A DNA stretch of 64,000 nucleotides, from IMG/VR virus record IMGVR_UViG_3300033121_001713, positions 35,475 through 99,474 of that record; one strand, 5' to 3'. This stretch comes from a virus (lineage: Duplodnaviria; Caudoviricetes). Made by a program: the position numbers and the translations under genes. This document shows, piece after piece, positions 14,977-34,491 of this stretch; position 1 is the first letter of the stretch; the number at the start of each line of letters is the position of its first letter. Under the pieces are notes generated by a model, which saw nothing but the letters and a program-made list of their open reading frames with translations, had not been told where the DNA came from and searched no databases.

Positions 14977-17900
14977 ATGGCAATCTCACCTAGCCTGTCA
15001 AAGTTCGTTTCGAGCGGAGTCTACAGGCTCGTCATCGATCGAAGCCAGGTCATCAACAACATCTCCCAGACCCTGAGGCTGATAATCGGCTTCTCGAAGA
15101 AAGGTCCTTTCAACACCCCAGTGTTCGTTCAGGATTCGGTTTTCTTCAAGGCGATCTTCGGAGAAATTGACCTGCAGCTCGAAAGAAAGGGTTCGTTCTT
15201 CCATAGGACGGTCCTAACCTGTCTCGAGCGAGGCCCTGTCGTAGTCTTGAACCTGTTGAATCTTGACAACGATGTCGACAAGGCTGACTTCCGTTCGGTC
15301 TCTACCGCAGCATGGCAAGCCAACTCGAGCAGGGTCAATACCGCAGTCTCGAATTTCTTCAACAAGGACAAGTTCTGGTTCTCCGATCCTAAGGCCTTGA
15401 TCGCTACCGCGGCTGATACCGATGTACAGAGCGCAGTGGCCAATAGGCTCCTGAACATCGCGAATACCGGTCGCAAAACGATCTCGGTCATCACCAAGAA
15501 GTCAGACATCCTGGGCTTCGATGCCATCGCCAAGGATTACTTCGGTGCTGGTAAGGTGCCAGAGTTCATGAAAGACAACGACTACATCTACGATTACCTC
15601 GTAGACGTCATCGTCGTGGAAGGAGATTTCTCCGACTACACCGCTCTCTCATTGGATCCGGTGTTCGGCCCTTATTTCGATTCGACCGGTCTCAAGAAGA
15701 CCTATGTCGATCAGTTCGGATTCGAGAGGGACGGCCTCGATGCATTCCTCTCCCTCGAGAACGTCAACGTGCTCGGCGTTTACACTGGCGCAATGATCCC
15801 TGATTTCATCACGAAGTCCGGTGAACCAATCTATATCGAGGACATTGTCAACCGCGAGACCAGCAAGACTGGCCTCCTGCTCTCTATCGATCGCCAGGTC
15901 TTCGACGATGAACCAGAAACTATCTCTGGAGACAGGCTTGATCTGGTCGGTCATACGCTGGAATCCGAACAGCCTGCTCTGCTAGATTTCATGTCCTACT
16001 ATGGGACCATTTCTGGAACCTCCGGTTTCACTGGTTCAACCGGTATCACTTCTCTGATAGTAGCTGCTACTGCCGGCGTCGCAGGAGCCCAGGCCCTTCT
16101 CAGCGCATCTACTGCCCTCCAGGCCGCAGCCGGTTGGACGAACGGTAGGTACGACACGATGACGATCTATGGTCCGTCGGCCACTTTGCCTTCCGGATTC
16201 ACGTCGGCATTCATTTCAGCTGCCGAGATGGCCGCATTCGTCGCCGATATTTCGACGAGCACCTCCTTCGTGAAGGTTGGAGCATCGGCCACCACCGGTT
16301 CGTCTGCCAACTATTCCGACGTCAGCTCCGCGGTTTACTCTTCCACGACCGACACTCTCACGGTGAAAGTGTCCTATCTTGTGAGCGCGAGCGAAGGCGT
16401 CACTGGCCCGACATCGAACTCGAACGGCTTCCTGCATATCCTGGCAACTGGCGCAACGCCTAACGGTGGAACTGCATCGGTTCCGATCATCAAGAAGCTC
16501 GATTTCGTCTTCGCTGCTGGTGGTTGGATCTACGCTGGTAAGGACAGCACCCTCTATCAACAGAATCTGGCCGGTACTTTGACCGATGGCGATGGCGTCA
16601 TCGTGAGCGGCGCCTCATATGGTTACGCTCAGTTCAATCGAGTGCAGACCTTCGATTTCTCTGGCGCCACGTTCTCTGGGGTCTCTTCCTTCGGTTCAGA
16701 GACGCCAACTCTCACCAAGCAGAAGAACTATGTCACCGTCAGGGCTTATGACAACAACGATTTCACTGGTGCGACTTCCATCGCTGCTGCGACTTCGTAT
16801 GTCTTCAGGAGCTTCACTGGCGATCTGAACGAGTCCTTCGAGGTCTGGGGCGGTACTTCCTACCCAACTCCTACGAACACTGTCTACTTTGACAATGGAT
16901 CTACTGGCCCTCTGGGTCTTGATGGATTCACAGGAGAGATCAGGAAGGGCCAAGGCCTGGTCATGAACTTCGGCGGCACCGGTGGAGCTACATCGATCGA
17001 TCCATTGACTGGAAAGTCAAGGCTCACGAAGATCGTCTCTGTTACGGAGTACACCGATCCTACTTCGCCTCTTTACAAGAAGATCAAGGTGGTCACAGTG
17101 GATCCGATCTTCATCAATGGCAACGAAGTTGAGCGCTACAAGAACATCGTCGATTTCGTCGAGCACTACAGGTTCCATGTTCTCAGAGGATACACTCTAA
17201 GGACGGAGCAGATGCCTGACGGCACGGCCACCAGGGAGAATGAAATCCTCCAAGTCCTCTACGACACTGGAATTGCCAACGCATTGGCTGACCGCGAGGT
17301 GGTGCAGTTCAGGTACCTGGTCGACTCTTTCCAAGGCACCATCGAGCCAGGCACCAAGGTTCGCCTCTCGAGGCTGGCCATGAACAGGCAAAACGTCTTG
17401 GCGATCGCTAACATGCCTTCTGTCGAGCAGTTTAGGGAGAGCAAAAACCCGCTATTCAAGTTCGACTCTGCATCTGGTTTCGATGCTCGATACATCAAGG
17501 ATGGCGGTAATCTCGACCTGAATCCGACCAATACGTTCAGCCTACCTGGCATCAACGATGGATCGAATTTCATCGCTTTCTACGGGCCTAACCTCTTGGT
17601 TCGTGAGAGCGGAAAGACGATCTCGATCCCACCGGCTGGACATGTGTCTAACCTGTACATCGACAAATACAACCTCGCCCTGCCATATGCGATCGTCGCC
17701 GGCCCAAGGAGAGGCGTCGTTACTGGCACCGGCCTACAAGGCGTCGAATACAACTTCGATAGGACAGACCTCGATTACATCGAGCCATTCGGATACAATG
17801 CGATCCTCAACAAGAGAGGATTTGGGTTGGTCATCAATGCTAACCAAACTGCCCAACAGAACGTGCTCTCGGCCCTCAGCCAGATCCACGTTCGCGAGTT

Positions 17901-18204
17901 GGTGATCTATGTTCAGGAAGGCATCGAGGCTATTCTCAAGAACTACGTGTGGGAGTTCAATACTCCACAGGTTCGCCTTGAGATCAAGACCCTTGCAGAT
18001 GGTTTCATGAAAGGCATCCTGGCGGATCAGGGAGTATATGACTTCCAGAACGTAATGGATTCCTCGAACAACACCGACGAGGTCATCCAGGACAATAAAG
18101 CCATCCTTGACACCTACATCGAGCCGGTCCGTGGCATGGGAGCTATCATCCATAGGACCATTCTGCTCAAGAAGGGTGTTATAAAAACGGGGAATTTCTT
18201 GTGA
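14977..18204 (+). CDS. gp18: Contractile tail sheath protein with a large Ser/Thr/Gly-rich insertion
   Basis: SSGVYRLVID, GFSKKGPFNTP, PPAGHVS, VAGPRRGV, IHVRELV, WEFNTPQVR, VMDSSNNT. Confidence 0.95.
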   Translation: MAISPSLSKFVSSGVYRLVIDRSQVINNISQTLRLIIGFSKKGPFNTPVFVQDSVFFKAIFGEIDLQLERKGSFFHRTVLTCLERGPVVVLNLLNLDNDVDKADFRSVSTAAWQANSSRVNTAVSNFFNKDKFWFSDPKALIATAADTDVQSAVANRLLNIANTGRKTISVITKKSDILGFDAIAKDYFGAGKVPEFMKDNDYIYDYLVDVIVVEGDFSDYTALSLDPVFGPYFDSTGLKKTYVDQFGFERDGLDAFLSLENVNVLGVYTGAMIPDFITKSGEPIYIEDIVNRETSKTGLLLSIDRQVFDDEPETISGDRLDLVGHTLESEQPALLDFMSYYGTISGTSGFTGSTGITSLIVAATAGVAGAQALLSASTALQAAAGWTNGRYDTMTIYGPSATLPSGFTSAFISAAEMAAFVADISTSTSFVKVGASATTGSSANYSDVSSAVYSSTTDTLTVKVSYLVSASEGVTGPTSNSNGFLHILATGATPNGGTASVPIIKKLDFVFAAGGWIYAGKDSTLYQQNLAGTLTDGDGVIVSGASYGYAQFNRVQTFDFSGATFSGVSSFGSETPTLTKQKNYVTVRAYDNNDFTGATSIAAATSYVFRSFTGDLNESFEVWGGTSYPTPTNTVYFDNGSTGPLGLDGFTGEIRKGQGLVMNFGGTGGATSIDPLTGKSRLTKIVSVTEYTDPTSPLYKKIKVVTVDPIFINGNEVERYKNIVDFVEHYRFHVLRGYTLRTEQMPDGTATRENEILQVLYDTGIANALADREVVQFRYLVDSFQGTIEPGTKVRLSRLAMNRQNVLAIANMPSVEQFRESKNPLFKFDSASGFDARYIKDGGNLDLNPTNTFSLPGINDGSNFIAFYGPNLLVRESGKTISIPPAGHVSNLYIDKYNLALPYAIVAGPRRGVVTGTGLQGVEYNFDRTDLDYIEPFGYNAILNKRGFGLVINANQTAQQNVLSALSQIHVRELVIYVQEGIEAILKNYVWEFNTPQVRLEIKTLADGFMKGILADQGVYDFQNVMDSSNNTDEVIQDNKAILDTYIEPVRGMGAIIHRTILLKKGVIKTGNFL

Positions 18205-20472: not shown

Positions 20473-21027
20473 GTGCCAGGGCTACCACACTTCCTCAACA
20501 ATCGTGCGGCTACGAAGCACTTCGAACCGGTTTATCAGAACCACTTCGAGGTGACCATTATCCCGCCTTCCCAGGTAGCTGGCGGCGAGATCCTTCTGGA
20601 GCACGTTAACAAGATCGGCGGACTAGAATCCGACAAGGGTTCCGCTGCGATCGATCAGAAATACAAGTTCGCCAAGCGTTCGTACGCCAGCGGTGAGCCC
20701 ACCGACACTGTCGTGGACCTCACGATCGATTTCTCGTTGAACCTGAACAACAACAACGAGATGTACGTCTACAAGACGCTGCGTGACTGGTCGAGATTGA
20801 TCTACAATCCTCTTACCGGCGCACAGGGCCTCAAGAAGGACTACGTCGGAACCATCATCGTCCAGAACTACACCAGGGATGGCAACATCTTCTGGCAGAG
20901 GACATTCCACGACGCTTTCATCACCGGTAACATCCCAGCTCTTGAACTCAGCTATGAGGGCGGCGAGAAGCTCGACCTGACGGGCGTAACGTTCCGATGC
21001 GATTGGTGGGAGGAGGCAATGATCTGA
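20473..21027 (+). CDS. gp19: Tail tube protein
   Basis: EPVYQNHFEV, LRDWSRLIYNPLTGAQGLKKDYVG, FRCDWWEE. Confidence 0.9.
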   Translation: MPGLPHFLNNRAATKHFEPVYQNHFEVTIIPPSQVAGGEILLEHVNKIGGLESDKGSAAIDQKYKFAKRSYASGEPTDTVVDLTIDFSLNLNNNNEMYVYKTLRDWSRLIYNPLTGAQGLKKDYVGTIIVQNYTRDGNIFWQRTFHDAFITGNIPALELSYEGGEKLDLTGVTFRCDWWEEAMI

Positions 21028-24251: not shown

Positions 24252-26096
24252 ATGACACCCAAAGCACACGATTCAGAGAAGTTCCAGCTGCTCGACGAGA
24301 TCGAGCACTGTCTTCTGCGGCCAGGCATGTTCATTGGATCTCCGAAGCCACACCCTTCAACGGAATATCTGCTTCGAGACGGAAAGTTCCAGAGGACGGA
24401 GGTCCAGTTCGTCCCAGGCTTGATGAAGCTGTTCGACGAGATCATCACCAACTCCGTAGACGAGCACAAACGCACAAAGGGCAAGCTCAATCAGATCAGG
24501 ATCACCGTCGATCGCTCAAGTGGAGAGATCACCATCCTCGACAACGGTGGCATCCCTGTGATCGAGCACGTCAAGCACAAGGTCATGGTGCCGGAGTTGA
24601 TCTTCTCGAACCTACGAGCTGGATCCAATTTCAACGACAGCGAGAAGCGCCATGTGGCAGGTACCCACGGGTACGGCTCCACGCTCACGAACATTTTCTC
24701 CATCCGCTTCTCGGTAGACACATGTGATGGAAAGCGCCGCTTTCGCCAGGTCTTCACCAACAACATGCGCGATCGCAAAAAAGCGGTCGTGACTGACGAC
24801 TCGAGCAAAGGATACACCGAGATCTCTTTCATCCCAGACTTCAAGCGCTTCGGCATGGATGGATGGGACGACATCCACATCGAGATGATGCGCAAACGCT
24901 GCATCGATCTCGCTGCGTGTAACCTCGGCCTCCAGATCCGTTTCGACGAGGAGAAGTTCAAGTTCAACAGCTTCAAACAGTACGCCGAGCTCTACGTCGA
25001 TCAGGTCTTCTTCGAGGAGGACGATCGATGGCAGATCGCCTTCGGCCATTCGACAGACGGCCACCAAGTGGTATCGTTCGCAAACTCCGCCGAGACCAAG
25101 GAAGGCGGGCGACACGTCGATTACATCGTCTCCCAACTGGTAGACCAGATCAGGGAGATGATCCGCAAGAAGCATCGAGTTGAAGTCAAGCCCGCCGAGA
25201 TCCGCAATCACATGTTCGTCGTGATGAGCGCGGTGATCGACAATCCCTCGTTCTCGTCTCAGACGAAGGAGAAGCTTGTTACAGAGACCAAGGACTTTGG
25301 CACCACGTTCGAAGTCAGTCAGAAGCTCGCCAAGCAGGTCTTTGGTTCGGAGATCATTCAGTCGATCCTCGATTGGATCCAACAGAAGCAGGATGCGGAG
25401 GAACGAGCTCAGCTTCGAAAGCTCAACGCTGGGCTCGGAGGCGCGAGGGTCGAGCAGCTCGACGATGCTAAGGCCAAGGGTCAGAGCGAGCGACTCAAGT
25501 GTTCGCTTGGCATCTTCGAAGGGATGTCGGCGAAGAGCGCCGTCAAAAAGTTCAGAGACGCCAATTACTTTGGAGCCTTCCCTCTGCGAGGCAAGTTCAT
25601 CAACGTCTCTGAGATGAGGCCATCCGAGATCATCAAGAACAAAGAGGCCGTGGATCTCATGGCTAGCATCGGACTCAAGCTAGGCGAGGTACCAGAGAAC
25701 TTGCGTTATGGCAAGATCATCGTCTACACCGATGCTGATGTCGATGGACAGTCCATCTTCTGCCTGCTTCTCAACTTCCTGGCTAAGTTCTGGCCCGAGC
25801 TCTTCGATCAAGGTCGAGTCTATCGAGCCATGACGCCGATCGTTGTAGCTACGAAGGGCAAGGACGTGAAGTACTTCTACACTCAGGAGGACTATGATCA
25901 ATGGGCCAACAAGCGAGAAAGGGGATGGGAGATCGAGTACAAGAAAGGCTTGGCGGCCCTAGAGGACTTTGATTATCAACGGATCATACAGGATCCTGTC
26001 CTCGTGAAGATCACAAGGGACGAAGCGTACAAACAGACGCTCGATGCCTGGTTTGGTAATGATTCAGAGAAACGTAAGGAAAAGATGCTTGCCTGA
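24252..26096 (+). CDS. gp39: Type II DNA topoisomerase ATPase/TOPRIM subunit (gp39+60, GyrB-like)
   Basis: EHCLLRPGMFIGS, FDEIITNSVD, AGSNFND, EGMSA, FPLRGKFIN, TDADVDG, YKKGLA. Confidence 0.96.
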   Translation: MTPKAHDSEKFQLLDEIEHCLLRPGMFIGSPKPHPSTEYLLRDGKFQRTEVQFVPGLMKLFDEIITNSVDEHKRTKGKLNQIRITVDRSSGEITILDNGGIPVIEHVKHKVMVPELIFSNLRAGSNFNDSEKRHVAGTHGYGSTLTNIFSIRFSVDTCDGKRRFRQVFTNNMRDRKKAVVTDDSSKGYTEISFIPDFKRFGMDGWDDIHIEMMRKRCIDLAACNLGLQIRFDEEKFKFNSFKQYAELYVDQVFFEEDDRWQIAFGHSTDGHQVVSFANSAETKEGGRHVDYIVSQLVDQIREMIRKKHRVEVKPAEIRNHMFVVMSAVIDNPSFSSQTKEKLVTETKDFGTTFEVSQKLAKQVFGSEIIQSILDWIQQKQDAEERAQLRKLNAGLGGARVEQLDDAKAKGQSERLKCSLGIFEGMSAKSAVKKFRDANYFGAFPLRGKFINVSEMRPSEIIKNKEAVDLMASIGLKLGEVPENLRYGKIIVYTDADVDGQSIFCLLLNFLAKFWPELFDQGRVYRAMTPIVVATKGKDVKYFYTQEDYDQWANKRERGWEIEYKKGLAALEDFDYQRIIQDPVLVKITRDEAYKQTLDAWFGNDSEKRKEKMLA

Positions 26097-26099
26097 ACC

Positions 26100-26693
26100 A
26101 TGGTTTGTTACCGCGACATGACTTTTTGCCCATTCCATGGGGATTGTACACACGCCCCTGACTGTCATCGACCTCTTACCGAAGAAGTGATGGCAAGGGC
26201 CGCTGCGGCAAAAATGCCGATCTGCAGGTATGCCGATAAACCGAGATGCCATAGCGACAAAGATGGACAGAGTAAAGATTCTGCTCCACGCAAGCTCAAT
26301 GCTAACATGACCAAGCCCTGGTACAGATACAACAGGAATTATGGCCTGCCAGGCAGCATCGTTCTCGAAGGCACGCCAGTCGGCAAGGAAGGAAACGAGA
26401 TCACGGTGGAGATGGTCATCCTGAGCAAGTTCATCTGGGGCAGGGGAGCTAGCGCAAATTCAATCTTTAACACCGGAGCGGCTACTCTCAAGTTTCAACA
26501 CACTGACCCCAGTGTGAATGCTAGCCGAGCCAAGCTGGTGGCCAAGGTCTGGAGGCTTTGCAAGATCAATGGCTTCAGGATCCATGGCCTTCCCGTGAGG
26601 CGACCTTCCCAGTCATACACGGAGGACTTGACACAGATCATCGATGCCATCTCGGCTTTCAATTCAACAGCGAATGGAAACCAGCCTGTATGA
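26100..26693 (+). CDS. Hypothetical protein with Cys-rich N-terminus
   Basis: MVCYRDMTFC...C...C...; may be a fusion of two small domains. Confidence 0.6.
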   Translation: MVCYRDMTFCPFHGDCTHAPDCHRPLTEEVMARAAAAKMPICRYADKPRCHSDKDGQSKDSAPRKLNANMTKPWYRYNRNYGLPGSIVLEGTPVGKEGNEITVEMVILSKFIWGRGASANSIFNTGAATLKFQHTDPSVNASRAKLVAKVWRLCKINGFRIHGLPVRRPSQSYTEDLTQIIDAISAFNSTANGNQPV

Positions 26694-26970
26694 TCTGATC
26701 GCCGAGGAGATATCTTCAATCATAGGAAGATTCTCGTTCAATGTGGAAGATCGAAAGCCAATTCCGGCAGACATCTGTGCACAGATCGTCTCATCGCTTC
26801 AGGAGATGGATGAATTCGGGCCATGGTATCACCAGATGCCAAAGCCATGCAGGTCGGCCATCTTCTATTACATCCTCGATGGCGCTCTTCCTCGAACCAC
26901 CCTTGCGAAGTGTAAGGTTGCATTCGATAGGGCCAAAGAACGGCACTCCGGTTTCACCGAGTCCGACTAA
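26674..26970 (+). CDS. Hypothetical protein
   Basis: METSLYDLIAEE...; fills the gap. Confidence 0.55.
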   Translation: METSLYDLIAEEISSIIGRFSFNVEDRKPIPADICAQIVSSLQEMDEFGPWYHQMPKPCRSAIFYYILDGALPRTTLAKCKVAFDRAKERHSGFTESD

Positions 26971-26975
26971 AGTGT

Positions 26976-26983
26976 TATGTTTG
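26976..26983 (+). promoter_or_regulatory. Bacteroidota-type -7 element TATGTTTG
   Basis: GTTATGTTTG, intergenic, upstream of gp52. Confidence 0.65.
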
Positions 26984-27002
26984 ACCACACAATCCACATA
27001 GA

Positions 27003-28343
27003 GTGAAGGAAAGCAAGAGCATCACGGAGACCCTCGACGACGAGTACCTCGGATATGCGATGTACACGATCGAGAACAGGGCGATCCCATCCGCAATAGA
27101 CGGCTTCAAGCCTACTCAGCGGAAGGTGATCCACATGGCCAGCAAGATCTGGAAGAGTGGAACAGAGAAGCCTATCAAGATCTTCCAGCTCTCTGGCAAG
27201 ATGGCGGCCGAATGCGCTTACCACCACGGCGATGGATCAGCCAGCTCGGCAGCGATCAACCTTGCACAGAAGTTCAAGAACAGCATGCCTCTGCTCGAGG
27301 AGATCGGGCAGTTCGGATCGATGCGATCGCCTGAACCTGGCGCCGCTAGGTACATCTCCACCAGGCTCTCGGAGAACTATCGCCTCCTTTACAAGGATCA
27401 GGAGCTCACCGAACCCAAGTTCGAGGATGGGTTGGAGATCGAGCCGAAGTTCATGCTGCCGATCGTTCCGACCGTTCTGTTGAACGGATCCTCAGGCATC
27501 GCAGTCGGTTTCGCCACGAACATCCTCAATCGAGATCCAAAGGTCCTCATCGAGAGCTGCCTCTCGGTCTTGAATGGAAAGAAGTTCATCGATCCTTTAC
27601 CTTGGTGGAAGGATTGGAATGGCATCGTGACCAAGACCGGTCCCAGCTCTTTCCAAGTCTCTGGCACCTGGCGCCAGCTCGACACGAGCACGATCGAGAT
27701 CACCGAGCTGCCTCCATCCATGACTTTCAGCAAGTTCGACGACCTGCTCGAACAGCTGATCGAGAAAGGAGTCATCAAGTCCTATGAGGACAACTGCGGA
27801 AAGCAGATCTCTTACAAGATCAAGCTTGCGAGGGAGATCTTGCGAAACCTCATGACTCAGGGCAAGGTTGAGTCTACATTCAGGCTGGTCACTAACGAGA
27901 GCGAGAACCTGACCTGCCTCGACCAACACGGAAAGCTTCGAGAGTTCGAGACCGCCGAGGAGATCGTGCGCTTCTTCGTCGACTTCAGGCTCGGCTATTA
28001 CAGCAAGCGAAAGGACCTCCTGATCTCGAAACTTTCGGCTCGACTCGCCTACCTGAATAACCGGGCACGGTTCATCAAGTCGATCATGGATGGCCAGCTC
28101 AAAGTCAACAGGAGGCCTAAGGCTGACATCCTCGAAGACATCGTCAAGCTTCGCTTCGACAAGCACAACGATGGATACGGCTATCTGTTAGACATGCCGA
28201 TCCATTCCTTCACGAAGGAGACCTACGAGTCCCTGATCAAAGAGGCCAATGAGACTACGGCCGAGCTCGAAACGGTGAAAGCGACCGAGCCCATCGACAT
28301 GTACAGGACTGATCTCAAGCAGCTCCTGAAGTCGCTGAATTGA
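27003..28343 (+). CDS. gp52: Type II DNA topoisomerase breakage-reunion subunit (gp52, GyrA-like)
   Basis: RAIPSAIDGFKPTQRK, YHHGD, AARYI (catalytic Tyr), LLNGSSGIAVGFATNI. Confidence 0.96.
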   Translation: MKESKSITETLDDEYLGYAMYTIENRAIPSAIDGFKPTQRKVIHMASKIWKSGTEKPIKIFQLSGKMAAECAYHHGDGSASSAAINLAQKFKNSMPLLEEIGQFGSMRSPEPGAARYISTRLSENYRLLYKDQELTEPKFEDGLEIEPKFMLPIVPTVLLNGSSGIAVGFATNILNRDPKVLIESCLSVLNGKKFIDPLPWWKDWNGIVTKTGPSSFQVSGTWRQLDTSTIEITELPPSMTFSKFDDLLEQLIEKGVIKSYEDNCGKQISYKIKLAREILRNLMTQGKVESTFRLVTNESENLTCLDQHGKLREFETAEEIVRFFVDFRLGYYSKRKDLLISKLSARLAYLNNRARFIKSIMDGQLKVNRRPKADILEDIVKLRFDKHNDGYGYLLDMPIHSFTKETYESLIKEANETTAELETVKATEPIDMYRTDLKQLLKSLN

Positions 28344-29048: not shown

Positions 29049-30032
29049 ATGACAGATCGCATGGAGGAAGCTATGAGCTCGGACCTCGAGAAGAGGGAGC
29101 ATCAAACAAGTGAGCCAAAACCACAGGCTCAGGCCCAACAACAGACGGAGGCGCCCAAGCAGACGTCCTTAGGCAAAGCCACCCATTTCCAGGGTGGAGA
29201 CAACGAGCCTTCGAACGTTCCGCACGGTTACATCGAAATCTGGCCTGACGCATTTCCGACTAGGGGAATGTTCTATCCTGCTGGAACGAGGTTCTTCGTC
29301 AGGGCCGCGACCGTCGATGCGATAAGGCATTTCTCGACAATCGATGAGACTTCGCCTTTCTCGGTTAACGAGGGCCTGGTCGACGTGATCAAGATGTGCT
29401 TGCTCGTGAAGACGCTTGGGAAGCCTCTGACTTACAAGGACATCAAGGATGAGGATCGTATCCACATCATTCTCGCCATCCGTGAGGTGACCTTCGCTAA
29501 GGGCGAGAATCGATTGGCGGTCAAAGTCGAGTGCGGCTGTGGCACGGAGAACGAGATCGAGGTTAGGAATTCGTCGTTCAGGCGAGCTGATCTCGACGAG
29601 GATGTCATGCGTTACTACGACGAGGAAGGCAGGCGGTTCGTCTTCAAGACGAAATCTTTCGGCGACATCATCATTTCTCCTCCATCGATCGGTATCGCAA
29701 CAGTCGTGACGGACTATGTCCAAAGGCTGGGCGCCGAAGGAAAGGCCAAGCAGATCGACAAGGCATTCGTGAGAATGCTGCCTTTCATCATCCATGACTA
29801 TAGGACCACTGACGAGAAGGCCATCAAGAGGTTGCATGTGGACTTCCTCAGCTGGAGCAAAGAGAAGTTCCAACTGATGAATAACCTGATCGATAAAGTG
29901 AAGCTAGGGGTGAAGGAGACCCTATTCTCTGCATGTGCGAACTGTGGCGAGGAGATCGCCACTCCGATCACGTTTCCCGGAGGATTCAAGTCTCTTTTCA
30001 TTGTTTCAGATATCTCTGGAGAGCTCCTTTAA
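29049..30032 (+). CDS. Baseplate hub assembly/tail chaperone (T4 gp26-like)
   Basis: FPTRGMFYP, DRIHIILAIRE, CGC...CANC, FPGGFKSLF. Confidence 0.75.
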   Translation: MTDRMEEAMSSDLEKREHQTSEPKPQAQAQQQTEAPKQTSLGKATHFQGGDNEPSNVPHGYIEIWPDAFPTRGMFYPAGTRFFVRAATVDAIRHFSTIDETSPFSVNEGLVDVIKMCLLVKTLGKPLTYKDIKDEDRIHIILAIREVTFAKGENRLAVKVECGCGTENEIEVRNSSFRRADLDEDVMRYYDEEGRRFVFKTKSFGDIIISPPSIGIATVVTDYVQRLGAEGKAKQIDKAFVRMLPFIIHDYRTTDEKAIKRLHVDFLSWSKEKFQLMNNLIDKVKLGVKETLFSACANCGEEIATPITFPGGFKSLFIVSDISGELL

Positions 30033-30300
30033 GAATGATGTGTACCTTGCGTATCACATCAGGCTCCAGCCATCCGAGATCGATCGGATGCCTTACTACC
30101 GGTACGAGTATTACGTGCAGCACCTGACATCCATTTTGCAGGAGAAGAAGGACGCGGAAGAAGGGACGTCAAAGTCATATCAACAGGACCAACCATCGAT
30201 AAATAAGGCGATGGGAGATATGCGCAAGATGATGCCTAACCTTCCCACTGGCCAGGCGCCAAAGTTCCCAGGTCTTCCGCCAGGTCTCAAACTGACCTGA
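30001..30300 (+). CDS. gp51-like hub assembly protein; TTG start or expressed by a +1 frameshift from the upstream ORF
   Basis: LAYHIRLQPSEIDRMPYYRYEYYVQHL resembles gp51; no ATG before the conserved-looking region. Confidence 0.6.
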   Translation: MFQISLESSFKNDVYLAYHIRLQPSEIDRMPYYRYEYYVQHLTSILQEKKDAEEGTSKSYQQDQPSINKAMGDMRKMMPNLPTGQAPKFPGLPPGLKLT

Positions 30301-30306
30301 TGATGG

Positions 30307-33300
30307 GTGGCCGCACGAAATCAAACCTCCTCAATTGACTCGCTCAAGTCGGTCCTAGATCGACTTGAGCGCATGGTCGATTATGCAGCCGATGCCTCGG
30401 ATGAGTCATCCAGGCTGCTGACCAGCCTGGAGGCACAAGTCAAGGTCACAATTGGCGTCGAGCTAAGGAAGCAGACCAAGCTCCTTGAAGGGATAGAGGC
30501 TAGACTCGGTAAGCTCTCGATGGAATCTGGGTTCAGGGCCCTCAGGGCTGACCTTGCGGTTGGGGCGCAGCTCCAGGGAGAGGCCATAATGGAACAGGCC
30601 AAGCTGGAACAGGCCCAAAGTTTGATCCTGGGGTCCATTCGAGACGGGCAGAATGCGTACTTTGACCTTGCAATCGACCAATCCCTGGAGCAAACCCAGA
30701 CCCTCCAGGATATACAGTTGGGTCAGTCTGCTAGCGTTCTAGCAACTCGAGAGATCGGCCAAAAGCTTGCCGAGATGGCTGCGTCACAGGCCGCCATTTC
30801 GATGATGACCGATAGGATGGTTCAGTCCATCTCTGTCCTGGAATCGAAGATCTCGGAACAGACTTCTGCTATCAATGCTGCATTCAAGGGCAATTCTCCA
30901 GACGAGCAATTGAAGCAGAGGACCGGTTCGAAGGACGCGGAAAAGTTCGCCAAGGCGTTTGGATCCCTCTCCAAGGCAATAACCAGTTTGGTGGAGGCCA
31001 CCTCGGCATCCGGCAACAGTTCTGAACAGATCAAAAAATTCCTTCTCTCCTTCGCCGAGGGAATCATAGCCTTTTCGGATAAGGTCGATCCGAAAAAGAT
31101 GGAGTCGGTTCAGAAGCTGATCGAATCGTTCAGCCGCTTTGCGATCGGTTGGAGCCTCTCGTTCGCGATGGCTATCCCGATCCTGAAGCTCAGCGTGATC
31201 GGAGCAGAGCTGTTCGCCTCAGCCCTGAATGCGCTCATCAAGGGAGTCGAACAGGTCGATGAACAGAAGGTCAAGTCGATAGCTTCGCTTGTCGTGCTCG
31301 GTAGATCGGCGTTCCTCTTTGGCCTCAGTCTAGCCGGATTTGCTTTGATCGGTAGGCTAGCGATCACCGGTGCAAGTCTGTTCAACAGAACGGTAGAGAC
31401 ACTCATCAAGGGAGTTCAAGAAGGCAAGGATCCAAAATCGATCGAGTACGTCGAAAGATTGCTAGCGATAGGCAGAGGATCCTTCCTCTTTGGCCTTAGC
31501 CTAGCAGGATTCGCGATCGTTGCACCGATTGCTATCATCGGAGCTGGTCTCTTCGCCTTGACGGTCAAGACGATGCTCTTCGCATTGAGCACTATCGACG
31601 ACAAAAAGGTAGAAGGCGTCAGGAACCTCATGTCCCTAACTAAGGGCATCATCTGGTTCGCTGTCTCGCTTGCCTTGACCTCGCTGGTTTGGAAGGAAGT
31701 TCTCATTGGCGCAGTCGCATTCGCTGGCACTGTTGCCCTCTTGGGCATGGCCTTAGAATTCATCTCCACCAAGGATGTCAAGGAAGGAGTTGGATCCCTC
31801 TTCAAGCTATCGTTGGGATTGGCATCGCTAGGACTTGGCCTGCTAGCATTCTTCATTCTCGCTCCTCCAGAAGTTACCATTCACACGGTCCTATCGGTAG
31901 GAGCCATCGCCCTCACATTCTTCCTCGTAGGTAAGGTCTCCGAAGAAATAACGCAGGGCGCAATTGCGATGGCGTTTGTCTCGTTCTCCTTGCTCACGAT
32001 CTCCCTTTCGTTGCTCCTGTTCAGGGCCACTGGCCTTAATGCTGGAGATGGACTGAACGTGGCCATCACTTTAGGGTTGCTAGCCCTACCGTTCATGATC
32101 GCTGGCATCAAGCCGATATCGAAATGGATCGCCTATGGCGCGATCGCTTTGACATTGGCTGCAGTCTCGCTCTCTGCTATCTCTATCGGGTTGCTGATAT
32201 TCAAGGCATCCGAGTTCACCACCGACGATGCGCTCGTATTGGCCAGCACTATCGGCGGATTGGGTGTGGTCTTCGCGTTGGCTGGAATTCCTCTGGTAGC
32301 CGCAGCCATTCTGCTAGGTTCTGTCGCATTGGGTGTTGCCGGATTTTCTTTGGGCATCATCAGCATCGGCATGATGCTCTTCAAGAAGGCTGATTTTGGT
32401 GAGGAAGATGGAGAGAATTTGAAGGTGGCGCTGGGATCCCTTGTTACTGGATTCTTGGGTGGAGAAATTCCAGGCGGAATACTGGCAGGAATATCGTACG
32501 CTGCTAAGCTAGCTGCAAGGACCGCTCTGATGAGGTACGTTGTGCCGCCAATGGTCTTGGCAGCTGGCGCCCTTGGCCTCATCAGCGTTGGCCTCATGGC
32601 ATTCAAGAAAGCCAATTTCAATCAATCCGACGCAGAGAACATGGAGTATGCGATCGGATCGCTTGTCAAGGCGTTCTCGATAGTGGTTGACAAGAAGAGG
32701 CAAGAGGAACTAGGGATCGATATCAACCCAGTGACGATGTTCGCCTCCGTGGCGGCTCTCTCTGGATTGGGCAACGTAGTTTTCGAGCTAGGCCGAGGCA
32801 TCCAGTCGATCGCCAACCTCGAGATAGTAGAATACGGCATCAAGGACGGTAAGCTTGTTCCGAAGTCGGTAAGGAAACTCAACGATTCCGATTTCACTGC
32901 AGCTGGAGAGAACATAGGCAGGATCCTTAGCGCCCTGGCCGAACCGTTGGCCCAGATCGGGATGTTAGAGAAAGAGGGATCTTCTGGTAACCCTATTTTC
33001 GATGCGATCTTCTCTAACGGTTACATCAGCACCGGGATCGAGTCTATCTCTGATCTTGGAGAGACCATAGCTAATCTCGGTCGTGGGATCAAGGACTTTG
33101 CTAATCTTCAGATCGTCGAGTACGGCGTCAAGGACGGAAAGCTGGTACCGATCAAGGTCACGAGAATGGCTGAGACCGACTTCGTCTCCGCCTCATTGAA
33201 TATCGGCAAGATCACCGGCTTCCTGGCCAACGAGTTCTATAAGATCGGCAAGATGGAGGACGAGAGCGATGGATGGTTCTCCGACGGGTATGTCACCAAC

Positions 33301-34491
33301 GGAGTAGAAGCCATCGCTGGAATGGGCGACAACCTTGTCGCATTAGCGAAGGCCATCACTGCCATGGCTAGGCTAGAAGTGGTTGAGCACGTCATCAAGG
33401 ACGGTAAGCTCGTTCCTAACCGAGTAATCGCTATCGGACAGGATCAATTGGCATCCGCGTCCCTCAACATTGGATTGATCCTTGGATTCCTTGCCAGCGA
33501 GTTTGCCAAGATCGGCAAGATGGAAGATGAGGGAAGCGGCTGGTTCTCAGATGGCATGGTCACCAAGGGCCGTGATGCCATTATTGGGATGGGCAAGGAC
33601 ATCTCGTCCGTTGTCGATGCGATACTCAAAATTTCGACTTCGGAGTTCACGACCTATCGCGTGGAGAACGGACAGCTAGTCCCGGTTTCTACTAGGAAGA
33701 TCAATTCGGATGATCTCAAGCTGGCGTCGGAGAACATTGGCCTAGTTCTTTCGCTGTTCGCTACAAGATTAGCTTCTGTTGGAGAATACATGGCCGATCG
33801 CGAAGACAAGATCAAGCTAGCGACCAAGTATCTGCCAAAGATGTCTGCCTTCGTTGGAAGCAGCGCTGATGCATTGACAAAGTGGTCACAGGTGCCAGAT
33901 CCGAAGGCCAATATGATGTCCTTGACGGAATTCCTATCTTCCACCGTGGATGTCTTCGATCCGACCAAGGATAGAGATCTTCCGATGAAGGTCGGATATT
34001 TCGCTCTCTTCTCGAAGAACATGGCTGCGTTGGCAGCTGCTGGAGACGGATTGGACAGATCGGCCAAGAACCTTGAGAGGATCGAGAAATCGATGAAGGC
34101 GATCAAGGAGAGCATCAATGGCACCGATCTCAAGAAGCTCACGACCACAGACTCTTTGGTCAAGTCATTGGCTATTCTCTCGAAATCGCCAGAGATGACT
34201 GCAAAGGCGTTGAAAGAATCGATTCACGATGTCTTCGAACGGTTCATAGAATCACTGAAAGAAGCAGTAGGCGACATGAGAGAATCGTCAGTCACGGCAT
34301 CGTCGCAGGCGCCAGTTATCATTCAACAGCAGGCTCCGCAGCAGATTACGCCTGCTGCCGCCATCCAGGCACAGGCCCAACAGTCAAGGACTGATGTCGT
34401 CAAGATGGTCGAGTCGCTTCGTGATCAGATCCTCGATGGCTTGAGCACCATCGAGATGAAAGTTAGGGTAGTCAACAACAACACGTTCTAA
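30307..34491 (+). CDS. Tail tape measure protein
   Basis: 1394 aa, Ala/Gly/Leu-rich helical repeats, long hydrophobic middle; follows the gp26/gp51-like genes. Confidence 0.8.
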   Translation: MAARNQTSSIDSLKSVLDRLERMVDYAADASDESSRLLTSLEAQVKVTIGVELRKQTKLLEGIEARLGKLSMESGFRALRADLAVGAQLQGEAIMEQAKLEQAQSLILGSIRDGQNAYFDLAIDQSLEQTQTLQDIQLGQSASVLATREIGQKLAEMAASQAAISMMTDRMVQSISVLESKISEQTSAINAAFKGNSPDEQLKQRTGSKDAEKFAKAFGSLSKAITSLVEATSASGNSSEQIKKFLLSFAEGIIAFSDKVDPKKMESVQKLIESFSRFAIGWSLSFAMAIPILKLSVIGAELFASALNALIKGVEQVDEQKVKSIASLVVLGRSAFLFGLSLAGFALIGRLAITGASLFNRTVETLIKGVQEGKDPKSIEYVERLLAIGRGSFLFGLSLAGFAIVAPIAIIGAGLFALTVKTMLFALSTIDDKKVEGVRNLMSLTKGIIWFAVSLALTSLVWKEVLIGAVAFAGTVALLGMALEFISTKDVKEGVGSLFKLSLGLASLGLGLLAFFILAPPEVTIHTVLSVGAIALTFFLVGKVSEEITQGAIAMAFVSFSLLTISLSLLLFRATGLNAGDGLNVAITLGLLALPFMIAGIKPISKWIAYGAIALTLAAVSLSAISIGLLIFKASEFTTDDALVLASTIGGLGVVFALAGIPLVAAAILLGSVALGVAGFSLGIISIGMMLFKKADFGEEDGENLKVALGSLVTGFLGGEIPGGILAGISYAAKLAARTALMRYVVPPMVLAAGALGLISVGLMAFKKANFNQSDAENMEYAIGSLVKAFSIVVDKKRQEELGIDINPVTMFASVAALSGLGNVVFELGRGIQSIANLEIVEYGIKDGKLVPKSVRKLNDSDFTAAGENIGRILSALAEPLAQIGMLEKEGSSGNPIFDAIFSNGYISTGIESISDLGETIANLGRGIKDFANLQIVEYGVKDGKLVPIKVTRMAETDFVSASLNIGKITGFLANEFYKIGKMEDESDGWFSDGYVTNGVEAIAGMGDNLVALAKAITAMARLEVVEHVIKDGKLVPNRVIAIGQDQLASASLNIGLILGFLASEFAKIGKMEDEGSGWFSDGMVTKGRDAIIGMGKDISSVVDAILKISTSEFTTYRVENGQLVPVSTRKINSDDLKLASENIGLVLSLFATRLASVGEYMADREDKIKLATKYLPKMSAFVGSSADALTKWSQVPDPKANMMSLTEFLSSTVDVFDPTKDRDLPMKVGYFALFSKNMAALAAAGDGLDRSAKNLERIEKSMKAIKESINGTDLKKLTTTDSLVKSLAILSKSPEMTAKALKESIHDVFERFIESLKEAVGDMRESSVTASSQAPVIIQQQAPQQITPAAAIQAQAQQSRTDVVKMVESLRDQILDGLSTIEMKVRVVNNNTF

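Follow-up and report, generated by a model that had tools for sequence, protein, structure and literature searches.

A putative programmed +1 frameshift yielding short and long forms of a gp26/gp51-family tail assembly chaperone in huge phages

Introduction

At known +1 frameshift sites, the P-site tRNA re-pairs one base downstream while the A-site codon is slow. In the E. coli prfB gene, which encodes release factor 2 (RF2), the +1 frameshift takes place at CUU UGA C and an upstream Shine-Dalgarno (SD) sequence is present. G-T frameshifting is conserved in long-tailed phages "except T4" (Atkins et al. 2016, PMC5009743), and the chaperone frameshift of lambda gpG/gpGT was described by Levin 1993 and by Xu, Hendrix & Duda 2004, as cited in PMC5009743. 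The precedents for +1 shifts in phages include Listeria phages PSA, A118 and A500 (CCC_UGA, ACA_CCC_U), and the haloarchaeal myovirus HSTV-2 has a probable +1 chaperone frameshift (PMC5009743). In T4, gp26 (208 aa) and gp51 (249 aa) are listed as hub assembly chaperones (Leiman et al. 2010, PMC3004832, Table 2), and gp51 is described in the same paper as an essential hub-assembly protein of unknown function. Here, we analysed a window of 64,000 nt from IMG/VR record IMGVR_UViG_3300033121_001713 (the whole record is 99 kb and is estimated to be 35% complete), in which two overlapping open reading frames, ORF1 and ORF2 (Table 1), appear to form one recoded gene for a tail/hub assembly chaperone. 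The original prediction for this locus had proposed that a programmed +1 frameshift joins the two frames and that a short and a long chaperone are made as a result. We found this to be the best explanation of the locus, as ORF2 is kept in the same phase in all overlapping relatives, the overlap is coding in both frames and ORF2 has no conserved start.

Results

Comparison of the locus with lambda G/GT

The ORF1/ORF2 locus was compared with the lambda G/GT genes, and the arrangements were found to have several features in common. As in lambda, where the tape measure gene follows, two overlapping frames are located just 5' of a gene that is tape-measure-like by size and position, and the downstream frame has no start of its own. 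In both systems the shift would come some codons before the stop of the upstream frame, short and long products would share a common N-terminal part, and the modelled N-terminal domain of ORF1 has the fold of the HK97 gpG-type chaperone. In contrast to lambda, the shift would be +1 (or of -2 phase) instead of -1, and the X XXY YYZ heptamer is not present. ORF1 is also much larger than its lambda counterpart, with 327 aa, an extra Zn-ribbon/helical domain and probable membership of PF12322, and the overlap of ~19 codons is dual-coding, with both readings conserved. Additionally, topoisomerase genes stand between the tube and chaperone genes in the window. We conclude that the locus would work like G/GT and would be a variant in mechanism.

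Conservation of the +1 phase and dual coding in the overlap

The junction set comprised 80 IMG/VR loci found with an ORF1 alignment as the query, 80 metagenome loci (JGI/ENA) found with a related protein as the query, and records of cultured phages; the pool of relatives amounted to ~470 in IMG/VR and ~200 in metagenomes. An IMG/VR locus search with the single ORF1 protein returned nothing, and the alignment query was needed. The set yielded 109 distinct junctions in which the two frames overlap, referred to as overlapped junctions, and seven separated loci. ORF2 was in the +1 frame in 109/109 overlapped junctions, from the window to Sphingomonas phage PAU (28% identity), and ORF2 similarity crossed the ORF1 stop without a break, starting at the AA of the stop or earlier. 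Judged from these comparisons, the overlap goes far beyond what chance would produce. The separated loci had an ORF1 that ended in ...GIKGLFIEDNILDDELI followed by the stop, and the frame-0 tail was kept (...ILDDELI). Six of these loci were traceable, and ORF2 was found 7-510 nt downstream (7 nt in L035 and 40-510 nt in the rest) in a variable phase and with its own ATG.

We found that the overlap was constrained in both frames. The inspected ORF1 homologues all finished in ...GGIKSLFVVSDISGELL. Free-standing ORF2 proteins started with M..PIVRLKLSD-IFKSFQIDLRGFYK... and gave a gapless alignment with the overlap as read in the +1 frame (SKVFSLFQISLENFFK...), and other stand-alone ORF2 homologues contained the same motif behind unrelated N-termini of 30-70 aa. 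In this N-terminal motif of ORF2, F6 was invariant and I8, L10 and K15 were nearly so, and all four residues are encoded upstream of or at the ORF1 stop. The entropy of 56 junctions was also calculated; negative numbers in the following denote nt upstream of the ORF1 stop, so that the TTG at 30001 is at -29. The third positions of frame 0 showed 1.4-1.9 bits up to about -46 and only about 0-0.8 bits from -43 on, and the third positions of the +1 frame varied from -43 on, which corresponds to a +1 codon periodicity. Because the +1 reading matches the N-termini of stand-alone ORF2 homologues, the last ~44 nt of ORF1 are, on comparative evidence, genuine coding sequence in both frames.

Two side observations concern the free-standing copies of ORF2. 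In LR756500.1, the closest database phage, an extra ORF with its own ATG stands directly after ORF2 (L003:7132-7300) and reads ...LFKLLDGQFKLMKYLNFTNSEINNLPYYEFEYYVDQI...; it looks like a tandem free-standing ORF2 paralogue. Four free-standing ORF2 genes (L032:1185-1224, L034:3854-3893, L042:3876-3915 and L056:3423-3462) share an AT-rich element (TTAATTAAATATAGTA...) located ~10-25 nt 5' of the ATG, with no SD sequence, and this element looks like a late-promoter motif of these phages.

Absence of a conserved start for ORF2

The +1 frame over the 3' end of ORF1 is open from 29935 to the TGA at 30298-30300, and its first ATG, at 30088, is located within the conserved core (RMPYY). Another explanation is that no recoding takes place and that ORF2 is an ordinary overlapping gene with lineage-specific or non-canonical starts in the 3' end of ORF1, perhaps coupled by translation. 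In the window, the candidates for such starts are TTG 30001, GTG 30040 and GTG 29935/29944. Some +1 ATG, GTG or TTG was found upstream of the motif in 82/109 junctions, one clade of about 15-20 loci kept GGT GGA, which gives GTG at -50, and a few had ATG at this position. Moreover, one gene-called representative begins with MESKVFSLF, stand-alone ORF2 has its own ATG in other lineages, and T4 gene 26 has an annotated internal start (26').

However, no start position was conserved among the relatives. TTG was present at -29 in 61/109 junctions, and relatives with ATT in frame 0 had the synonymous TTA there; likewise, GTG at -53 was exchanged for GCG between near-identical contigs (CGT/CGC in frame 0). 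The original prediction had named a conserved start at 30001 together with a variable overlap phase as the pattern that would speak against a frameshift; neither was found, as the phase was constant in the overlapped junctions. We also found that 27/109 junctions had no ATG, GTG or TTG from the opening of the +1 frame to the conserved motif, that 20 of these 27 also had no CTG, ATT, ATC or ATA, and that about 7-9 of the 109 lacked any canonical start upstream of the ORF1 stop. At the single position where GAT would give rise to an ATG in the +1 frame, GAC was used over GAT at a ratio of 54:3, whereas elsewhere in these genes GAT accounted for 73% of the Asp codons. Independent genes would have no rationale for keeping a 44-nt dual-coding overlap over very deep divergence, and the lineages in which ORF2 has its own start have also lost the overlap. 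As no ORF2 start is conserved, independent initiation is therefore not the general mechanism, and we consider this explanation unlikely.

Candidate site of the +1 shift

In 17 relatives, the +1 frame opened only at -59, one codon upstream of TTT_CCC. Constraint in the +1 frame was seen from -44: the +1 codon was kept as TCA, the Ile codon of frame 0 was ATC in ~95% against a background of 24%, and ATA in frame 0, which would yield TAA in the +1 frame, was never used at -45. In addition, T at -37 was invariant although the frame-0 residue varied among Ser, Gly, Ala and Asp, and C was preferred at -43. The opening at -59 and the constraint from -44 therefore place the shift within about five codons, F-P/R/Q-G/D-G-I.

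Within these codons, TTT_C was present at the site in 98/109 junctions as well as in PAU and the L026 lineage. TTT followed by CGT, CGC, CCC or CGG was found at the site in 86/103 loci (83%), compared with 3/1343 (0.2%) of the other Phe codons in the same genes. The residue after the site Phe varied (Pro, Arg or Gln), and wherever TTT_C was present, its codon began with C. When this residue was Pro, CCC was used in 25/40 cases, as against 3% of Pro codons in the same genes; when it was Arg, CGC or CGT was used in all 61-62 cases and AGA never, although AGA makes up 71% of Arg codons in the background. In the window, TTT represents 15% of Phe codons and CCC represents 12% of Pro codons. The other slip motifs (CCC_G, AAA_A/G and GGG_A) were found in just 16-31 of the 109 junctions. 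From these comparisons, we consider UUU_CCC to be the best candidate for the site and a moderately probable one; it stands just outside positions 29985-30300, to which the original prediction had assigned the shift.

Two further features of the sequence around such sites were observed. The codons of frame 0 just after the candidate site (29976-29984 in the window) include unusually many C-ending rare codons in AT-rich relatives (CGC GAC GGC ATC), and the clade of the window reads CCC GGA GGN at these positions, with a perfect GGAGG inside; the patch may slow ribosomes or may pair with 16S rRNA. The only other TTT in the body of ORF1 is also a TTT_C (TTT CCG, 29253-29258), and by our own reading the +1 frame closes there ~22 codons further on; it could be a low-level abortive shift site or could be due to chance.

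The sequence features listed in the original prediction (TCT CTT TTC A at 29991-30000, GGA GAG CTC CTT TAA G at 30018-30033, and the +1 overlap) were all present as stated, and two shift sites had been derived from them. The first of these is CUU_U at 29994-29997, with the junction ...GGFKSL-SLFQISL... CUU_U is the classical slip pair of prfB and Ty1, CTT_T was present in 93/109 junctions, and P0271, the single in-frame database fusion, has exactly that junction. However, among the Leu codons only CTT produces TTT (Phe) in the +1 frame, and the TAA results from TTT AAG or TAT AAA (F/Y-K) in that frame. The nucleotide conservation of ...GAA CTT CTT TAA G is thus due to dual coding, with CTT forced by Leu in frame 0 and Phe in frame +1, and therefore provides no independent evidence for a slip at either CTT. 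Lineages with TTA, TTG, TTC, CTC or ATC at this position retained the whole arrangement, and the +1 codons upstream of it are already constrained, as seen from T at -37, C at -43 and the avoidance of ATA. Additionally, the next codon of frame 0 is the common TTC, which would not pause the ribosome, and P0271 looks like the product of a 1-nt deletion. A shift at CUU_U is possible but, in our judgement, quite improbable. The second site, a prfB-like shift on CUU UAA G at the stop (30027-30033), for which GGAGAG would serve as the internal SD sequence and which would give the junction ...ISGELL-KNDVY..., had been favoured originally and now seems very improbable: the motif is present and CTT TAA R is nearly invariant across relatives, but a shift there would leave the +1 coding signal from -44 to 0 and the homology to stand-alone ORF2 N-termini unexplained, the TAA is dictated by +1 codons that stand-alone ORF2 proteins also have, the variants TTA TAA, GTA TAA, TCT TAA and CTT TGA exist, and GGAG is not conserved (e.g. 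ACT GAC GAA, TCT TCA GAA).

Proposed mechanism

Taken together, comparative evidence makes a programmed +1 frameshift, at whichever site, that yields a short and a long chaperone the best reading of the locus, and we regard it as likely with good confidence. We propose that most ribosomes would stay in frame 0 up to the TAA at 30030 and would produce the 327-aa short form, which consists of a gpG-like N-terminal domain, a Zn-ribbon/helical domain and a tail ending in ...GELL. A fraction of the ribosomes would slip by +1 shortly 5' of the dual-coding overlap, most likely at UUU_CCC. At this site, the P-site tRNA-Phe, which is wobble-paired on UUU, would move its pairing to UUC during a pause at the rare A-site codon CCC; an alternative slip of tRNA-Pro on CCC_G would produce an identical protein. 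The shifted ribosomes would run to the TGA at 30298 and would yield a long form of 416 aa, in which a Gp51_C-like domain of 107 residues takes the place of the 18 C-terminal residues of ORF1. For this form we predict the junction ...ATPITF-PEDSSLFSLFQISLESSFK... and the junction peptide ...ATPITFPEDSSLFSLFQISLESSFK. By analogy with lambda G/GT, the shared part may bind the tape measure or the hub, and the extension may recruit another tail component.

Family and fold of the ORF1 protein

ORF1 homologues were found in huge phages, including LR756500 (39% identity), the Lak megaphages, Chryseobacterium phages MA9V-1/2, Sphingomonas phage PAU (gp93), Tenacibaculum phages PTm1/5 and Flavobacterium phage MaF61. 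A large collection contained 316 homologous protein clusters, many of which are tagged PF12322. This family matched 9/25 aligned ORF1 homologues (best E-value 1.3e-8), and the PAU (33.7 bits) and LR756500 (30 bits) orthologues exceeded the curated PF12322 cut-off of 24.5 bits, with matches in the N-terminal half only. The window ORF1 itself gave no PF12322 match at E 0.01. Transitive homology, together with structural matches to models annotated as gp26/gp51, argues for the placement of ORF1 in PF12322. Gene callers begin ORF1 at Met9 (29073), after GGAGGA.

The AlphaFold2 (AF2) model of ORF1 had a predicted local distance difference test (pLDDT) score of 80.8. In the BFVD, this model matched PAU gp93-type proteins as well as models with the annotations 'baseplate hub subunit', 'T4 gp51-like' and 'baseplate hub assembly chaperone'. 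A Foldseek search of the PDB with the whole ORF1 model revealed nothing at E<=0.001, and a PDB sequence search with ORF1 gave no match. The N-terminal domain was compared with 48,161 chains using VIA-align, and the tail assembly chaperone (TAC) of HK97 (2ob9) was the first match, with a Z-score of 6.6 and a root mean square deviation of 3.4 for 78 aligned residues of 104. The next matches were 3fgx (Z-score 6.1) and YqbN (3klu, Z-score 5.8), and the following hit had a Z-score of 3.6. The same three TACs were obtained in the same order when the whole ORF1 model was used, and the matches covered most of each chain. In the model, the N-terminal domain thus has a tail assembly chaperone fold of the kind seen in HK97, XkdN-type (YqbN) and related proteins.

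Relationship of ORF1 and ORF2 to T4 gp26 and gp51

T4 gp26 and gp51 are paralogues, as PF12322 is matched over its full length by residues 1-206 of gp26 and by residues 1-201 of the 249 residues of gp51. The gp51 homologues contain PF12322 and PF28602 (Gp51_C), while T4 gp26 contains PF12322 alone. There are two PF12322 genes in the T4 genome and one each in PAU and LR756500. In a profile comparison with hhalign, ORF1 gave a weak match to T4 gp26 (35%); T4 gp26 ends in ...GLKEFFELL, which can be compared with ...GFKSLF..GELL in ORF1. One GenBank record labels a gp51 homologue as 'tape measure protein assembly chaperone'.

We also compared ORF2 with the C-terminal extension of gp51. In the ESM Atlas, the nearest named clusters for ORF2 were DUF6760 (0.91) and Gp51_C (0.90; 30% of the cluster members carry Gp51_C). 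A hidden Markov model (HMM) of ORF2 matched the C-terminus of Cronobacter phage GAP161 gp51 (residues 197-246, ELNEFFKTNYLL...) with 9.2 bits and a p of about 6e-5. An hhalign comparison of trimmed ORF2 with gp51 profiles gave 63 collinear columns (P 8.5e-4), and 0/300 column shuffles reached this score. In the Pfam and PHROG searches, ORF2 gave nothing except a sub-threshold match to DUF6760, for which no literature was found. No significant match was obtained either when ORF2 was compared by hhalign with T4 gp51 in full length, with only the last 62 residues of gp51, with T4 gp28 or with a 10-member gp51 alignment. The homology of ORF2 to the C-terminal extension of gp51 is therefore probable, not proven. 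The 'gp51-like' label that ORF2 had been given is accurate in that ORF2 resembles the ~48-residue C-terminal extension of gp51, but it does not apply to gp51 as a whole, as the gp51 body, like gp26, is what ORF1 resembles.

T4 is similar to the window in that PF12322 is found in gp26, gp51 and the relatives of ORF1, and that the ~48-aa extension of gp51 aligns collinearly, with marginal similarity, to the N-terminus of ORF2. It differs in that gp26 and gp51 are encoded by two separate, divergently transcribed genes without recoding, and ORF1 is ~120 aa longer than gp26. In GAP161 and Klebsiella phage KLB25 (L173, L174), the genes stand in the order gp54, gp51, gp26 on one strand, and gp51 and gp26 overlap by a few bases, unlike the divergent arrangement in T4; among the gp51 proteins, those of this group come closest to ORF2. 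The hub gene cluster of T4 also contains another long +1 overlap, in which gene 28 starts 56 nt within gene 27 in the +1 frame (L084:10349-10404); according to the record, the N-terminus was determined experimentally.

Gene context

The coordinates of the features are listed in Table 1. The ORF1/ORF2 pair is located directly 5' of an ORF of 1394 aa, and the tube gene is 9 kb upstream of the pair; a terminase gene is also found upstream of ORF1 in the window, which contains no tRNA genes. MA9V-1 and PAU have the sheath gene first, then tube-region genes, ORF1 and ORF2, and a large protein is encoded further downstream. The 1394-aa ORF matched no Pfam or PHROG family, and its Atlas match to T4_Tape_measure (0.89) serves as a lead only; its size and position suggest that it encodes the tape measure protein. 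ORF2 is closed by two in-frame TGA codons (30298 and 30301), and the tape-measure-like ORF opens 6 nt further on at GTG 30307 in the same frame; in the gene call behind its Atlas record, this ORF begins only at residue 23. The double TGA and the near GTG suggest that translation of the tape measure is coupled to the trans-frame product by termination and reinitiation.

Table 1. Positions of the features in and around the ORF1/ORF2 locus (numbering of the 64,000-nt window).
Feature	Coordinates	Strand	Description
ORF1	29049..30032	+	327 aa, stop TAA 30030-30032; short product ending ...SDISGELL; gp26/gp51-family (PF12322-related) hub/tail assembly chaperone
ORF1 N-terminal domain	29202..29552	+	Residues 52-168; predicted gpG-like tail assembly chaperone fold; model pLDDT 84.8
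Candidate +1 shift site TTT_CCC	29973..29978	+	Slippery Phe codon, then rare codon
ORF2, trans-frame part	29977..30300	+	107 codons in the +1 frame; Gp51_C-like helical core (LQPSEI..MPYY..), then Lys/Pro/Met-rich tail
Dual-coding overlap	29986..30032	+	Frame 0, conserved ORF1 tail ...KSLFIVSDISGELL and stop; frame +1, ORF2 N-terminal motif S-x-hydrophobic-F-S-L-F-Q-I-S-L-E-x-x-F-K
TTG, proposed ORF2 start	30001..30003	+	Varies like a synonymous Leu codon in the +1 frame
Tape-measure-like protein	30307..34491	+	1394 aa; repeated hydrophobic segments; same frame as ORF2
Tail sheath	14977-18204	+	PHROG match 5e-138
Tail tube	20473-21027	+	PHROG match 4e-13
Topoisomerase II genes (two)	24252-28343		Between tube and chaperone gene; PHROG matches 8e-198 and 1.5e-141

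Discussion

The proposed frameshift resembles that of prfB, as a P-site tRNA would slip by +1 to an overlapping codon while a slow A-site codon waits, and the string CTT TAA G after GGAGAG is present in the window. In contrast to prfB, the shift would, on the comparative evidence, take place 44 nt or more before the stop, and decoding in the A site would be slowed by a rare sense codon (CCC/CGY), as in yeast Ty1, and not by a stop. The locus has in common with the Listeria phages that a +1 shift would affect phage structural or tail genes and involve rare CCC codons, and with HSTV-2 that the +1 shift would be at the G/GT position of a myovirus. It differs from PSA in the genes concerned, which are those of the capsid and the tail shaft in PSA. 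Moreover, the slip of PSA is that of tRNA-Pro on CCC at a stop or with a pseudoknot, whereas the general motif here is UUU_C with a rare codon. No paper on a frameshift in gp26-family genes was found in the literature.

Several observations weigh against a frameshift at this site or against a frameshift in general. No slip motif is universal: five loci read TTC_CCA at the site, with GTG at -50 and AAA_A at -42, and MA9V-1 lacks a Phe at the corresponding position. Different lineages may therefore use different slip sites, much as the slippery sequences of G/GT genes vary. In principle, coding of Phe in the +1 frame could also account for the C at -54 and the TTT. RNAalifold predicted no pairs for 17 junctions, so that no stimulatory RNA structure was found, and no conserved SD sequence was found upstream. 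ORF2 is free-standing in several lineages, and hence a covalent fusion is not obligatory for its function. In addition, the Z-scores for the TAC fold (5.8-6.6) are below 8, the comfort level of the tool, and the full-length hhalign runs of ORF2 against gp51 gave no match.

The database was also searched for natural fusions. We found 608 ORF2 homologues, and among the best 150, which were 61-180 aa in length, none was fused to an ORF1-type protein, which is a further point against a fused product. Among longer proteins, two fusions were found, P0271 and P0272. P0271 (399 aa, junction ...GIKSL-SLFKISL) was rejected as a natural fusion, as three independent contigs of 100% identity have the normal run of four T; it probably represents a 1-nt deletion or a sequencing error. 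In P0272 (234 aa, on a 1.4-kb JGI contig), ORF1 is joined at ...WSNKKYT directly to NLFSLFKISLENFFK... of the +1 frame, and ~45 codons are missing. Either P0272 arose as an artefact of assembly, or it represents a genuine deletion variant in which the fusion is hard-wired. Stand-alone ORF2 also shows an 'ATPI' likeness at its N-terminus to frame 0 of ORF1; this could have been a trace of a hard-wired fusion, but it was too weak and was dropped.

The locus can be regarded as a bridge between the two types of system, as it contains one PF12322 gene with a gpG-like fold that is followed by a start-less +1 frame resembling the gp51 extension. From this combination, T4 gp26 would seem to be the counterpart of G and T4 gp51 that of GT; in the simplest picture, gp26 represents the short form, while gp51 is a long form that has been hard-wired. 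The link between lambda G/GT and T4 gp26/gp51 that was drawn in the original prediction holds, but gp51 corresponds to GT, the whole fusion, and not to T. A broader hypothesis is that the tail-chaperone frameshift is universal in long-tailed phages, including T4-type phages, and that the ancestral gp26/gp51 was one recoded gene as seen here, with a +1 shift, which T4 would have resolved by a duplication, with gene 26 as the G form and gene 51 as the hard-wired GT form. We give this hypothesis an even chance.

A single recoded gene that matches both gp26 and gp51 would explain why T4 seemed to be without the frameshift of long-tailed phages, and it would provide a concrete role for the long-enigmatic 'catalytic' gp51. 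T4 genetics and cultured relatives with the same overlap (PAU gp93/94, MA9V-1 006/007 and PTm1) thereby offer a means of testing the G/GT question. The locus is a clean natural case of a long and deeply conserved dual-coding overlap, and in more than 100 related metagenomic and cultured jumbo-phage genomes, ORF2 is annotated with arbitrary starts or its N-terminus is missed. If the proposed shift is correct, UUU_C followed by a rare codon would be a new natural +1 signal of the bacterial type, for which no stop codon, SD sequence or RNA structure is needed.

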